Origin: Minisyncoccota bacterium
GTDB taxonomy: Bacteria; Patescibacteriota; Minisyncoccia; Phycocordibacterales; UBA9973
Length of the DNA: 64,000 bases
Direction of reading: 5' to 3'
NCBI GenBank assembly: GCA_041666045.1
Contig: JBAYHR010000003.1
Location: forward strand, 2,208 to 66,207
How positions within the stretch are numbered: position 1 is the stretch's first letter; each line of letters opens with the position of its first letter. Below the pieces are notes generated by a model, which saw only the letters and a list, made by a program, of their open reading frames with translations, searched no databases and had not been told where the DNA came from. The position numbers and the translations under genes were made by a program. This document shows, one piece after another, positions 14,521 to 53,069 of the stretch.

Positions 14521-16671
<2,151 letters not shown>

Positions 16672-16717: not shown

Positions 16718-16784
16718 TCCCGTTAGAAAATCATCGGGGTAGTGGTTTGTCGGTAAAGATTATAAATTAAATTTTCTAATGGGA
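16718..16784 (+). repeat. intergenic copy of the CCCGTTAGAAA inverted-repeat element, with the right arm ending in the ATG of the downstream gene
   Basis: Left arm TCCCGTTAGAAAATC. Right arm ATTTTCTAATGGGA, one mismatch. Separated by about 38 nt. Confidence 0.7.
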
Positions 16785-17383: not shown

Positions 17384-17411
17384 TTGCTTTTTTATATAGA
17401 TATGATATAAT
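17384..17411 (+). promoter_or_regulatory. sigma70-like promoter of the GC-rich cassette gene
   Basis: TTGCTT, 16-nt spacer, TGATATAAT. Confidence 0.55.
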
Positions 17412-17463
17412 GCGTTTAGCTAGAAAAGTTCTAGTTCTTTTAAATAATTTAAAAATAAATAAG

Positions 17464-18366
17464 ATGATGACGACAAAATTGATCACGTCGAAAGATCCGA
17501 AAGGATTGCATGCTGTAAGCTTATTTGAATCTGCTTACAACAAACTTGGTCTGACTGATGAACAGGCACAAATGCTTAATGAAAAAGGTGGTGAATTCAA
17601 AGAGAAAATACAAAAAATTATCCGCGAATTGACTGTTAAAAACCAGTATGCCAATGAAGTAATAAATTCAAACTACACCTATCCAAAGGAATACAAAGGT
17701 CCTAAATTAATCATTGAACAAGTAAAAACCATTGCTGAATTATTTGGACTTGATCCGAAAGAAGCACTGGAATTTATAAAAACTTTACCTGCAATACCTG
17801 ATGGCACAGAGGGATGGTTGGCTGTTCCAAAAGTATCAGCTGTAGCTAAGAAACATTTCCCTGCAATTACAGATCCAGCCATGCAGTATTGTGAAGCAGT
17901 AAAAATGGTACATGCAAAATTAGCTAAAAGCCGTAGATTTACAAACTATCGTGATGGAGAAATTGTTCCAAATAAACTTCGCCAAAGTGCTCGCACTTTG
18001 GATTTTTTAGAACAATTTATCGAAGCAAAACAACCGGGTGATATTATAATCATTGCCGTTCAATATGGAATGAGACATCGCGGTGAATCTGTTCGCAGGG
18101 CAAGAGAAATATTTTCCTTTAATGAATTTGGCTTAGGTGCATTTGCAATCGGTTGTATGGCTTTGGTTCATCCTGAACGTTATGTAAGATGGGAAGAATT
18201 AGACACAGACTGCGCTGGTGATGAATTTTCTCCGGGCGGTGATGGGGTCTTCTCGAAGGCTCCGGTCTTCTGCTTCGACGACGGCGAGCTGCGGTTTTTC
18301 ACGCACGATGTTTCGGTTGCTAGCGTCGGCTATGGTTCGGCTTCCGGTTTTGTTCCGCAGGGTTGA
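17464..18366 (+). CDS. hypothetical protein on a GC-rich cassette
   Basis: Own extended -10 promoter and own terminator. The last ~135 nt is about 60% GC, against a genome of about 30%. No recognisable domain. The ORF-track start at 17410 overlaps the -10 box, so the ATGATG at 17464 is preferred. Confidence 0.5.
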   Translation: MMTTKLITSKDPKGLHAVSLFESAYNKLGLTDEQAQMLNEKGGEFKEKIQKIIRELTVKNQYANEVINSNYTYPKEYKGPKLIIEQVKTIAELFGLDPKEALEFIKTLPAIPDGTEGWLAVPKVSAVAKKHFPAITDPAMQYCEAVKMVHAKLAKSRRFTNYRDGEIVPNKLRQSARTLDFLEQFIEAKQPGDIIIIAVQYGMRHRGESVRRAREIFSFNEFGLGAFAIGCMALVHPERYVRWEELDTDCAGDEFSPGGDGVFSKAPVFCFDDGELRFFTHDVSVASVGYGSASGFVPQG

Positions 18367-18435
18367 TTTTCTCATCTTGAATTCTTTAATCTTTTGAATT
18401 CTTTATTTTGATTCTTGAATTCGAAAATTTTTTTA

Positions 18436-18518: not shown

Positions 18519-18551
18519 TAATTTCTGATTTAGTTAAAATATAGCTCGCGG
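18519..18551 (+). repeat. 33-bp direct repeat, copy 2 (abuts the 3' end of tRNA-Ser)
   Basis: TAATTTCTGATTTAGTTAAAATATAGCTCGCGG, 1 mismatch to copy 1. The last 3 nt overlap the tRNA discriminator and acceptor end. Confidence 0.85.
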
Positions 18552-18635
18552 AGGGTGGGAGATTCGAACTCCCGATGCCCTTACAGGCATACAGACTTTC
18601 CAGGTCTGCGCACTAGACCGCTATGCGAACCCTCC
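18549..18635 (-). tRNA. tRNA-Ser (anticodon GGA)
   Basis: Hand-folded as an 87-nt class II tRNA. It has a 7-bp acceptor stem GGAGGGT/ACCCTCC, anticodon loop CUGGAAA, a long variable arm, T-loop GTTCGAATC, discriminator G, and no encoded CCA. Confidence 0.8.
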
Positions 18636-28700: not shown

Positions 28701-28737
28701 TTATTTTTTATTTTCTACTAGGTCTTTAATTTTTGCG
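28701..28737 (+). repeat. 37-bp direct repeat, copy 2 (authentic 3' end of thrS)
   Basis: Identical 37-mer forming the last 11 codons plus stop of thrS. Confidence 0.85.
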
Positions 28738-30494
28738 AGGAAATCGGAAGATGTAATGTTTTCTAATTTTTCACCTTCACGTCCTTCTACTGTTAGAGTT
28801 TTTGTTTCTTTTTCTTTATCACCAATAACTACAAGATATGGAATCTTTTGCATTTTTGCGCCACGGATTTTTTTACCTAAAGATTCATTTGTATCATCAA
28901 GTTCTACTCGCACTCCATTTTCTTTAAGAGTTTTGAAAACTTCATTAGCAAAATCTAAATGTTTGTCTGTAGAAATTGGTAATATTTTCACTTGAACAGG
29001 GGAAAGCCACAAAGGAAATGCTCCTGCGAAGTGTTCTATAAGCACACCCATGAATCTTTCAAGTGAGCCTGAAATAGCACGATGGATTACCACAGGGCGT
29101 TCTTTTTCATTCTTTTCATTTGCAAAGGATAAATCAAAACGTTCTGGTAAGTTGAAATCACATTGTATTGTAGCAAGTTGCCATTCTCGGCCGATTGAAT
29201 CTTTAAACATAAAGTCTAATTTTGGGCCATAAAAAGCTGCTTCATCTTTCGCTTCACGATAAGGAAGTTTTTCACTTTCACAAACATCTCTCAATGCTTT
29301 TTCTGCTGTGTCCCAAACTTCATCAGATCCTAGATATTTTGTTTTATCATCTCCGCGTAAAGAAAGACGAACCCAGTAATTGTTCATCATTCCGATAACT
29401 CCGTAAAATTCTTTTATGATATTTATGATAGTTTTTATTTCATCACCAATTTGATCTTTTCTGCAGAAAAGATGTCCGTCGTCTTGAGTGATAGCTCGTA
29501 CGCGGGTGAGTCCACCTAATTGTCCAGATTTTTCATCTCTATAAACTGTAGCTGGTTCGAAATATCGGACAGGCATATCACGATAAGAATATTGATCATC
29601 AATAAAGATTTGCATATGGTGAGGGCAGTTCATTGGTTTTAAGAAAAACTTCTCTTCTTTTCCTTGAACACGGAAAAGTTCATCACCAAATTTTGCAGCA
29701 TGTCCTGAAGTTTCGTAAAGTTTTTCTTTTGCTATATGAGGAGTCCATACTCTGGAGTATCCTTTGTCTTTATGTAAATCCCAAAGAAAATCTTCAATAG
29801 CTTTTCGAATAATCATTCCTTTTGGTTTTATAAGTGGCAAACCAGCTCCAACTAAATCAGAAATAGTGAAAAGTCCTAATTCGCGTCCTAATTTTTTATG
29901 GTCTCTTTTTTTAGCTTCTTCTCTTTGATTTATAAAAGCCTCGAGTTCTTCTTTATTTTCAAATGCAAGTCCGTAAATACGAGTAAGCATTTTGTTTTTT
30001 TCATCTCCGCGCCAGTATGCTCCCGCCACGCGATCTAATTTGAAACAATCAGGTGAGATTTCTTTTGAAGGATTTTCCATATGTCCTCCACGGCAAAGAT
30101 CTGTAAATTTACCACAAGTATAAAGAGTTATTTTTTCATTTTTTAATCCATCTATCAATTCTGTTTTGTATTCATTACCAGAAAAATATTTTTTTGCTTC
30201 ATCAAAAGTTTTTTCTTCTACAGAAAATTCTTTCCAAGTTTTTAATATTTCTCGCATCTTCTTTTCTATCTTTGGAAGATCTTTATCAGAAATAGGGGAT
30301 TTGAAATCAAAGTCATAATAAAATCCGTCATCTATTGGTGGCCCTAAAGTCACTTTTGTTTCAGGATATATTTCCAAAACAGCTGCTGCTAAAAGGTGAG
30401 CTAAAGAATGTCTTAAATTGTGTAATTTATCGTTTGTTTCCATAAGTCTTATAATATCATATTTTTTTATTTTTTCTACTAATTTATTTTGCAT
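28701..30494 (-). CDS. thrS: threonine--tRNA ligase
   Basis: N2 editing domain (RHSLAHLL), class II core (RDHKKLGRELGLF, HRAISGSLERFMGVLIEH) and a C-terminal anticodon-binding domain. Confidence 0.9.
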   Translation of the reverse strand: MQNKLVEKIKKYDIIRLMETNDKLHNLRHSLAHLLAAAVLEIYPETKVTLGPPIDDGFYYDFDFKSPISDKDLPKIEKKMREILKTWKEFSVEEKTFDEAKKYFSGNEYKTELIDGLKNEKITLYTCGKFTDLCRGGHMENPSKEISPDCFKLDRVAGAYWRGDEKNKMLTRIYGLAFENKEELEAFINQREEAKKRDHKKLGRELGLFTISDLVGAGLPLIKPKGMIIRKAIEDFLWDLHKDKGYSRVWTPHIAKEKLYETSGHAAKFGDELFRVQGKEEKFFLKPMNCPHHMQIFIDDQYSYRDMPVRYFEPATVYRDEKSGQLGGLTRVRAITQDDGHLFCRKDQIGDEIKTIINIIKEFYGVIGMMNNYWVRLSLRGDDKTKYLGSDEVWDTAEKALRDVCESEKLPYREAKDEAAFYGPKLDFMFKDSIGREWQLATIQCDFNLPERFDLSFANEKNEKERPVVIHRAISGSLERFMGVLIEHFAGAFPLWLSPVQVKILPISTDKHLDFANEVFKTLKENGVRVELDDTNESLGKKIRGAKMQKIPYLVVIGDKEKETKTLTVEGREGEKLENITSSDFLAKIKDLVENKK

Positions 30495-43002: not shown

Positions 43003-43743
43003 ATGCGTTTTCATATAATTACAATTTTTCCGGAGATTTTTGACTCATATTTAACTGAGTCTATTATTGGGCGGGCTATAAAAAATAAGCATATTTCTGT
43101 TAAGTTTTATAATCCTAGAGATTATGTAAAATCTCAGAATAAGGCGAATTATAAGCCTGTAGATGATAGACCATATGGTGGAGGACCTGGAATGATAATG
43201 CGAGCTGAGCCAATTCTTAAAGCAGTAGAAAAAGCAATTTTGGTAGCTAGTAAAGTTTCCTCGGGTCCTCAGTTTGGAGCCAGACCAGCTCGGAAACTTT
43301 CTAGCCACCAAAATAAAATTTTAATTATTAATTTTGTACCAAGTGCAGAAAAATTTACTACAACTTTTGCAAAAAAAGTTTCAAAAAAATATACAGATAT
43401 TATTTTAATTTGTGGAAGGTATGAAGGTATTGATGCACGAGTAGATAAAATCCTTCGACAAGCTCAGGACAAGTTTTTAAAATTTAAAAAAATTTCAATA
43501 GGGGATTATGTATTAACTGGAGGAGAACTTCCAACGATGATTTTAGTAGATTGTATTTCTCGCCAGATTCCTGGGGTTTTAGGTAAGTATGAATCTCTGG
43601 AAGAAGAAAGAGTTTCTTCTAGTGAATTTTATACTCGCCCAGAAAAATTAGTTTATAAAGGAAAAAAATATAATGTGCCAAAAGTTTTACTTTCAGGGAA
43701 TCATCAATTGATTGAACAATGGAAAAAGTCTAGTAAAAAATAA
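43003..43743 (+). CDS. trmD: tRNA (guanine37-N1)-methyltransferase TrmD
   Basis: SPOUT knot motifs (RPYGGGPGMIMRAEPI, GRYEGIDARV, GDYVLTGGELP). Carries a ~19-aa in-frame insertion. Confidence 0.9.
   Translation: MRFHIITIFPEIFDSYLTESIIGRAIKNKHISVKFYNPRDYVKSQNKANYKPVDDRPYGGGPGMIMRAEPILKAVEKAILVASKVSSGPQFGARPARKLSSHQNKILIINFVPSAEKFTTTFAKKVSKKYTDIILICGRYEGIDARVDKILRQAQDKFLKFKKISIGDYVLTGGELPTMILVDCISRQIPGVLGKYESLEEERVSSSEFYTRPEKLVYKGKKYNVPKVLLSGNHQLIEQWKKSSKK
43247..43304 (+). repeat. in-frame palindromic element in trmD (arms CTAGTAAAGTTTCC/GGAAACTTTCTAG, GC-rich core)
   Basis: Core TCGGGTCCTCAGTTTGGAGCCAGACCAGCTC. Translated as SKVSSGPQFGARPARKLSS, inserted after the conserved GGGPGMIMRAEPI block. 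Confidence 0.75.
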
Positions 43744-52948: not shown

Positions 52949-53069
52949 ATCCCGTTAGAAATCAAAAAGTTAAGTAATTTTTCACGGGATAAATAATTAT
53001 GGAGTATATAAAAGTCATTATTAATAAATTAACTACGGAGATCTAAAGATTTCCTATTTCTAACGGGAT
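52949..53069 (+). repeat. intergenic copy of the CCCGTTAGAAAT inverted-repeat element, with the right arm overlapping the rpoD start codon
   Basis: Perfect 14-bp arms ATCCCGTTAGAAAT / ATTTCTAACGGGAT, 93 nt apart. A partial extra right-arm copy (TCACGGGAT) lies inside. Confidence 0.75.

Follow-up and report, generated by a model that had tools for sequence, protein, structure and literature searches.

The 64,000-nucleotide stretch analysed here (the window) comes from a Minisyncoccota bacterium (contig JBAYHR010000003.1) and has a GC content of about 31%. One of its genes, trmD, encodes the 246-residue tRNA (guanine37-N1)-methyltransferase. The protein is 100% identical to the TrmD of an NCBI 'Candidatus Paceibacterota bacterium' metagenome-assembled genome (MAG) with PF01746, and TrmD structures in the PDB match it with E = 6e-40. 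A palindromic, GC-rich stem-loop lies inside trmD, and the open reading frame (ORF) is unbroken across it; this stem-loop and its relatives are the subject of the present study. An initial annotation of the window had described it as an in-frame palindromic GC-rich insertion, the third after two in ligA, and our analysis supported that reading. The proposed arms, CTAGTAAAGTTTCC (43247-43260) and GGAAACTTTCTAG (43292-43304), were found where they had been placed, together with the perfect 9-bp stem AAAGTTTCC/GGAAACTTT. The core between them, TCGGGTCCTCAGTTTGGAGCCAGACCAGCTC, has the claimed 31 nt, and its GC content is 61% (19/31) rather than 58%. The encoded peptide SKVSSGPQFGARPARKLSS (TrmD residues 83-101) is indeed in frame, though it lies 19 residues past the GGGPGM block (residues 59-64) instead of adjoining it. 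The palindrome itself is real and had been drawn too small, as the whole stem-loop is longer than the two arms and the core (Table 1).

The pairing of the trmD hairpin extends outward to ATTTTGGT/ACCAAAAT. The fold reached -31.2 kcal/mol (z = -6.0), which was equalled by 0 of 200 shuffles. The perfect 9-mer alone was unremarkable (4 matches versus 1.7 expected). When perfect arms of 9 bp or more and a core GC content of 45% or more were required, the 64-kb window yielded only five hairpins, namely an intergenic terminator-like one, one within ORF 28701-30494, the two ligA inserts and the trmD insert. What had been called AT-rich arms proved to be two layers: the inner stem, of the AAATTTTC/GAAAATTT type, is conserved, while each copy has outer arms of its own.

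Table 1. Positions of the trmD element, the ligA inserts and other features in the window
Feature	Position	Strand	Description
trmD, host gene	43003-43743	+	
Complete hairpin element, 78 nt	43237-43314	+, sense	in frame, about residues 79-104; from folding and a covariance-model match (43242-43314)
Left outer arm ATTTTGGTAGCTAGT, copy-specific	43237-43251	+	pairs with 43301-43314
Left inner stem AAAGTTTCC, variant of the family-wide AAATTTTCT	43252-43260	+	from the 12-copy alignment, flank consensus
GC-rich core	43261-43291	+	signature GGTCCTC(A/G)G at 43264-43272, short variable apex, CCAGACC at 43280-43286; regular-expression match 43264-43286
Right inner stem GGAAACTTT	43292-43300	+	from sequence and fold
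Right outer arm CTAGCCACCAAAAT, complement of the left outer arm	43301-43314	+	from the fold
ligA in-frame hairpin 1, 18-residue peptide, arms ACCCCGTTAGAAAT/ATTTCTAACGGGGT	14855-14908	+	fold z = -6.8; third, separate hairpin family
ligA in-frame hairpin 2, 21-residue peptide, 'family 2'	15277-15360	-	fold z = -5.9; inner stem AAAATTTTCTTC/GAAGAAAATTT as in the trmD type
Intergenic inverted repeat	52951-53067		AT-rich interior of 93 nt; ATG of the next ORF at 53068
Intergenic inverted repeat	16719-16783		AT-rich interior of 41 nt; ATG of the next ORF at 16784
GC-rich stretch, 168 nt	18200-18367		up to 68% GC; 3' end of ORF 17410-18366
tRNA-Ser(GGA)	18548-18635	-	
Intragenic inverted repeat	28988-29066		within ORF 28701-30494 (-); perfect 9-bp arms, 61-nt spacer, 48% GC

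The initial annotation had proposed that a comparison of TrmD orthologues would tell an insertion from a native loop. Eighty trmD loci of Nomurabacteria/Paceibacterota were fetched by protein similarity, and 61 sources, including the window, were parsed. The 120 closest TrmD homologues share 66-90% identity and are 213-263 residues long, and the length difference falls at the insert site. Many close relatives have no insert: a short native linker (...KAISKIKNKKKILIINF, with the short loop ...AISKIKNKKKILIINF) was present in 38 of the 61 parsed loci. At least 12 extra codons were found at this site in 15 of them. The inserts of the window type have TTTTCTTCGGGTCCTCGG...GCCAGACCAYTCRGAAAA in common, and different hairpins occupy the same codon position in other loci (L044/L060, L029, L013/L015, L054, L036, L035 and L007). 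The inserts of relatives at this site all fold as DNA hairpins, and the same insert encoded by non-palindromic DNA, which had been named as the refuting case, was not found among the parsed loci. The presence of unrelated hairpins at one codon position marks the TrmD linker as a hotspot. Judged from the orthologous sequences, the trmD hairpin is an insertion and not a native loop.

The insert replaces a short lysine-rich TrmD linker between a helix and the next strand. The TrmDs in the PDB align in two blocks, broken at query residues 84-130. In an AlphaFold2 model built with 80 homologues (mean predicted local distance difference test score, pLDDT, of 73.7), a helix spans residues 68-87, a coil with pLDDT below 50 spans residues 86-102, and a strand spans residues 106-111. 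The model places the insert in a predicted disordered loop; the extra peptide is thereby modelled as an unstructured loop between two conserved secondary-structure elements, at a position that is tolerated. We take the next strand and loop, ILIINFVPSAEKF, to be equivalent to VIYLSPQG of E. coli TrmD, at the entry to the trefoil knot that binds S-adenosylmethionine. By this analogy the insert would lie just outside the TrmD catalytic core.

A neighbour-joining TrmD tree was used to compare an ancient single insertion with recurrent insertion. The insert types were intermixed in this tree, and the protein is too short to separate the two cases. Two tree neighbours, P0011 and P0025, have the same left-arm residues (AILMASK) with different cores (SSGPRKGVSQTTQK versus ISTPSRKRATPQEG), a pattern which suggests that the core was replaced within a retained arm. 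At the same site, L028 and L048 carry an AT-rich insert encoding TNYELRIK (ATTACGAATTACGAATTAAGAATT; proteins P0064, P0068, P0078, P0088 and P0105). It resembles a short tandem or palindromic ACGAATT repeat and not a GC-core hairpin.

The inner part of the trmD hairpin recurs as a nucleotide module with the order TTTTCTYR-GGTCCTCGG-variable apex-CCAGACCAYTCRGAAAA. It is made up of the inner stem TTTTCT/AGAAAA, the helix GGTC/GACC, internal loops and the variable apex. At the trmD site this module is read as FSSGPR..ARPFRK in L001, L002, L003 and L024. In L073, L077 and L079 it is found at the same site one base out of phase, giving FSRVLGKNPQTTRK. It also occurs at one smc site (L010, L026 and L072). 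In an alignment of 12 copies, GGTCCTC.G and CCAGACC were invariant, synonymous core positions did not vary, and 13 of the 23 pairs predicted by RNAalifold had changed on both sides. When these 12 copies were turned into a covariance model, it also recovered untrained copies in L008, L045 and L022. The trmD element scored 63.4 bits (E = 6e-12) against this model; since it had itself been among the 12 used for training, independent support comes from the inner module, which is nearly identical at other loci. It is the nucleotide sequence that is conserved, and not the peptide.

Metagenome contigs were scanned with the exact core pattern, which matched at least 120 stretches. Over all sequence collected, at least 147 family copies were found among the matches listed. 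Of these 147 listed copies, 102 lie in sense orientation in ORFs of at least 80 residues (34, 50 and 18 in phases 0, 2 and 1), 22 lie antisense in such ORFs, and 23 lie in short ORFs or in none. In other words, 124 of the 147 listed copies (about 84%) are inside uninterrupted ORFs of at least 80 residues. The hosts named by NCBIfam were PcrA/UvrD, TrmD, NifS/IscS, SMC, RecJ, RsmA, UvrC, PheT, MnmA, PolA, IleS, LigA, GatA, DusB, UvrA, ArgS, an RluF-like synthase and YifB. The genic copies are always open-reading and in frame, and from this ORF integrity they are presumably read through by the ribosome. No match to the core pattern was found in the viral contigs scanned, so there was no sign of phage origin. 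Decayed copies were also observed in the unbiased TrmD protein set (KFSSVARSLAPLSHSFRK, KFSSGLPAMQRQPFRK, and stubs with KFS only or KFS(S)), as expected for non-functional DNA.

The distribution of the copies bears directly on the possibility of an ordinary lineage-specific loop, in which the amino acids are selected and the palindromy is accidental. The peptide does sit in a TrmD loop of generally variable length. However, the same nucleotides are read in three frames and antisense, the host ORFs form at least 34 unrelated gene clusters, and copies are present in intergenic DNA as well. The invariant synonymous positions of the core and the fold z of -6 speak against a protein loop in the same way. 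We regard this explanation as refuted for practical purposes.

Some loci are much richer in copies than others. L091 (3.8 kb) has three copies across adjacent genes, and L133 (4.7 kb) has two copies in one IscS gene. This density is far above that of the window genome and indicates lineage-specific bursts. The PcrA gene at L166:5848-8121 (identical in L107) contains, besides an element of the trmD type, two copies of another GC-rich insert. This second insert encodes RGVSQADGPRGSAP(R/S)A(R/D)GDSDPAE and is found at two different positions.

The full hairpins are about 75-105 nt long. Their outer arms of 10-25 bp are different in every copy and yet complementary. Stem pairing was taken from the covariance-model alignment. 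A stem count based on the minimum free energy fold was rejected, because it over-estimates stem length in AT-rich flanks, and so was greedy stem extension, because it stalls at the first internal loop. Among 113 distinct copies, 94.9% of the stem cells were paired, versus 68% in shuffles and 36-60% when the partners were slid. All four Watson-Crick pair types were observed at every outer-stem position. The non-Watson-Crick cells comprised 25 G:T, 41 A:C and 43 others, with no wobble excess. This result favoured a DNA-level, strand-symmetric maintenance of the arms over selection on an RNA fold.

Comparison of copies in the same host gene supported a joint change of both arms. In pairs with recognisably homologous arms, 135 differences were compensated versus 57 that were one-sided. 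For RecJ (L098 versus L195), about one quarter of the arm positions differ, with matching changes opposite. For concerted evolution of this sort, the proposed mechanisms are template switching on quasi-palindromes and conversion between the arms (PMC6649704). The core can also be found in either direction. In MnmA, L120 (antisense core) and L187 (sense core) have the arms GCAAAAAATGA.../...TCATTTTTTGC in common, and two KsgA copies (L199 and L169) likewise have opposite core orientations between shared arms. Opposite cores in homologous arms suggest that the core was inverted between its own inverted arms and was not inserted twice. In different genomes, one and the same site can hold the family in sense, the family in antisense, other cores, or nothing (KsgA, UvrC, MnmA, IscS, PcrA, RecJ and LigA). 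The IscS site, which elsewhere holds the trmD-type family, has in L154 a near-perfect 38-nt palindrome, AACAGGCAAGGCCTGTTAAAAAACAGGCCTTGCCTGTT, with no recognisable core, read as NNRQGLLKNRPCLL.

These data also allow us to weigh whether the hairpin is a functional cis-acting mRNA structure kept by the host. Such a structure would serve as a protein-binding, processing, stabilising or ribosome-pausing site, with the internal loops as recognition surface. In its favour, the unbiased trmD and smc copies show no variation in GGUC/GACC, in GG/CC or in the two asymmetric internal loops whatever the frame, and stem complementarity has been retained over a long divergence. The sense excess of 102 versus 22 among the matches listed points in the same direction, but it is close to what a stop-codon filter gives. 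By sequence inspection, all three sense frames of the conserved module are free of stop codons, and TGA is present in two antisense frames (TTTGAATGG, CCTGAGAA), so three sense frames and only one or two antisense frames are open. A requirement to stay open thus predicts roughly the observed excess, and the use of sense bias as a sign of function was rejected for this reason, two of the three antisense frames carrying TGA in the module. The stems lack the G-U enrichment of an RNA structure (25 G:T versus 41 A:C). Antisense cores are found at the same sites and in the same arms, which an RNA motif would not tolerate, and many close relatives have no copy or have unrelated hairpins in its place. 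No Rfam family matched the element either: in Rfam 15, the only window match at gathering score was the tRNA-Ser, and the best E over 43150-43400 was 0.13, far below gathering. Taken together, we consider a host RNA structure improbable.

The initial annotation had also noted the kinship of the trmD insert with the two ligA inserts. This was borne out by folding, all three window inserts having z of -6 to -7. They are the same kind of insert with three distinct cores, and not copies of one shared sequence. Against the family model, ligA insert 2 gave a weak minus-strand match (23.3 bits, E 0.07). In relatives, LigA site 2 holds the trmD-type family (L081, L142 and L189). P0121, which is 89% identical to the window LigA, reads AKFSRVLGMGPDQLEN at this site, and both P0121 and P0123 carry the trmD-type core there (AKFSRVLG..PDQLEN). 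In the UvrC of L137, a core (FSPLRPS..WDPR) resembling that of ligA insert 2 sits on an inner stem, AATTTTTC, that the two have in common. The pair AAATTTTC/GAAAATTT forms the inner stem in ligA insert 2, the L137 UvrC core and the trmD-type cores of P0121 and P0123. The shared LigA site 2 and the shared inner stem join the three window inserts in a single superfamily whose cassettes differ in their cores. The type of ligA insert 1 was also detected in the LigA of P0162 and P0186, and most relatives are without it; its arm motif recurs in L049, L128, L144 and L189.

The arm of ligA insert 1 is present in two intergenic inverted repeats of the window as well (CCCGTTAGAAAT/ATTTCTAACGGG, with the variant CCCGTTAGAAAA/TTTTCTAATGGG). 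Their 3' arms stop exactly at the ATG of the next ORF. A long GC-rich stretch without an Rfam match is located just upstream of the tRNA-Ser gene. The inverted repeat at 28988-29066 may be a further intragenic hairpin or may have arisen by chance.

The best explanation of these results, and in our judgement a probable one, is that the trmD insert is a copy of a dispersed, non-autonomous palindromic element family of the ultra-small Paceibacterota, a phylum that belongs to the CPR (Candidate Phyla Radiation). The family resembles the Rickettsia palindromic elements (RPEs), and its copies would be selfish and tolerated by the host. Its mobility we infer from the distribution of the copies only. 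Copies may arise by insertion or copying at permissive sites, and the survivors would be those which keep the frame, have no stop codon and fall in tolerant surface loops. As the antisense strand has TGA in two frames, such a survival filter would explain the sense excess of 3:1 or more. The arms may co-evolve if the extruded hairpin undergoes template switching within the strand or conversion of one arm by the other, so that they would drift in sequence yet stay Watson-Crick complementary. The core may flip by recombination or template switching between the inverted arms. The peptide itself would have no required function.

Several results weigh against this explanation. The analysis identified neither a transposase, for which no systematic search was made, nor a target-site duplication or a donor copy. 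The window genome is sparse in the element, with one good and one weak copy in 64 kb by the covariance model, and beyond the trmD site there were four smc copies in about 1.3 Mb of trmD-centred loci. The core is unchanged, third codon positions included, across trmD orthologues of 61-80% protein identity. Simple decay after insertion predicts less invariance than this, and the core may be under selection or may be re-copied repeatedly. For the metagenome copies, core invariance arises by construction, and only the trmD and smc loci retrieved by protein are unbiased in this respect.

The junctions give some information on how the copies arise. Between inserted and uninserted orthologues, a few native codons were replaced and no obvious direct duplication was seen, with the sequences too diverged for single bases to be certain. 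In TrmD (SVA(K/R)), SMC (KEFSG) and MnmA (GHYAKNE), the left arm has its homologue in native uninserted sequence. In these three genes the right arm repeats the left arm in inverted form, AAATTTTCT is present in the native target beforehand, and the net gain of 36-69 nt is smaller than the hairpin. A native left arm, an inverted right arm and a short gain suggest that the template was first switched to another copy and that the flank was then copied by snap-back. In RecJ, all 90 nt of the hairpin are net gain, and neither arm is like the sequence of uninserted orthologues. The snap-back model was therefore rejected as a general account, since it fits TrmD, SMC and MnmA and fails for RecJ, and we put it forward as a hypothesis only.

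The same junctions matter for another explanation, in which the cell or a dedicated enzyme recognises the core at the DNA level, on hairpins that are extruded or single-stranded. Candidate users of such a site would be a recombinase, a nuclease or a protein related to replication or segregation, and a role as DNA-uptake signal would be another candidate. This machinery would then produce the copies; otherwise they would come from template switching without a transposase, between copies at their shared AAATTTTC stem, and subsequent snap-back of the flank. The symmetric, DNA-like pairing statistics, the flipping of the core between inverted arms and the use of the same inner stem and sites by different cores all agree with such a site. 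So do the native-like left arms, inverted right arms, pre-existing AAATTTTCT and short gains of TrmD, SMC and MnmA, whereas the wholly new hairpin of RecJ does not. The hosts are rich in replication and repair functions, as has been noted for intragenic repetitive extragenic palindromic (REP) sequences (PMC3733652). On the other hand, no associated gene turned up, though no systematic search for one was made, and copy density was low in most sampled genomes. We consider a DNA recognition site unlikely.

A broader scheme in which the family is more than plain junk is speculative, and we hold it to be doubtful rather than remote. The family would be a self-templating CPR cassette system with a few conserved GC-rich cores that are recognised by a dedicated protein or structurally active as single-stranded DNA or RNA. 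The cores would be template-switched between shared AAATTTTC/GAAAATTT stems without a transposase and would gain their outer arms when the flank is copied by snap-back; they would also be inverted in place and persist through selection or continual re-copying. In this scheme, the recurrent hotspots in genes for replication, repair and translation would form a genome-wide structured layer. For the single trmD hairpin, ordinary and tolerated selfish DNA is the most likely status, in keeping with our preferred explanation of a dispersed, non-autonomous element family.

RPEs are the precedent for in-frame palindromic repeats in housekeeping genes (Ogata et al. 2000, 2002; PMC10969869, PMC3733652). 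In these accounts, RPEs belong to a bacterium with an AT-rich, reduced genome and are short repeats of palindromic form with no coding capacity of their own, dispersed and often in frame in unrelated housekeeping genes, where the surface peptides are compatible with function. The CPR family shares these traits and shows the features of the RPE class: a stable hairpin, dispersal in genes and intergenic DNA, and a frame kept at a predicted surface position. The likeness is functional, and membership of the RPE sequence family is not claimed, the CPR family belonging to another phylum. The CPR elements measure 75-105 nt versus roughly 100-150 bp for RPEs. Unlike RPEs, they keep a conserved inner module between outer arms that no other copy has, their core flips in place, and several cores use the same sites. 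The CPR arms stay complementary, while RPEs are reported to lose repeat identity over time (PMC6649704).

[quoted passage not shown] MITEs have conserved terminal inverted repeats, target-site duplications and a match to a parent insertion sequence (PMC10969869). In the CPR family, conservation is confined to the inner stem TTTTCT/AGAAAA and does not extend to the terminal arms, and no obvious duplication was seen. REP sequences with their RAYT partners are also stem-loop repeats, some of them intragenic, notably in replication and repair genes (Di Nocera et al. 2013, PMC3733652). Their length is 20-40 bp, they are tagged with GTAG or CGTC at one end, they lie mainly outside genes, and G-T pairs are frequent in them (PMC3733652). 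Unlike them, the CPR elements have no conserved GTAG/CGTC, are 75-105 nt long, show no G-T excess and are mostly intragenic (124 of the 147 copies listed). The coding palindromes of Nematomorpha mitochondria are near-perfect inverted repeats in translated genes whose arms are kept complementary (Mikhailov et al. 2019, PMC6649704), and template switching has been proposed as the homogenising mechanism (PMC6649704). A mobile core common to these repeats is absent, and conserved segments of the proteins are encoded in their arms (PMC6649704), whereas the CPR copies have a common GC-rich core and arms that encode dispensable loop residues.

On the features tested, the CPR family fails both the MITE and the REP definitions. 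The mobile GC clusters and the byp elements of yeast mitochondria are GC-rich hairpin mini-elements that invade AT-rich genomes, coding regions included. Both are organellar, and the ribosome bypasses the byp elements rather than translating them. In contrast, the CPR elements always preserve the frame and have no stop codons, which argues for read-through and not for bypass. A literature search on palindromic, MITE and in-frame elements in CPR, Patescibacteria, Parcubacteria and Paceibacteria found nothing relevant; its coverage was incomplete and a prior description is possible. A large superfamily of elements with unusual arm dynamics in Paceibacterota is thus apparently undescribed.

If this is true, the family would be a large independent case, after Rickettsia, of selfish palindromes inside essential protein-coding genes, and its setting is the CPR, whose genomes are thought to be highly streamlined. 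It would account for part of the unusual length variation and of the 'CPR-specific insertions' in conserved proteins, and would bear on annotation, phylogenomic alignments, structure prediction and MAG quality control. The hundreds of independent loop insertions in well-known enzymes would amount to a natural experiment. With a conserved core, concerted copy-specific arms, in-place inversion and cores competing for sites, the family would also be a tractable system for studying how palindromes are created and maintained in bacteria.

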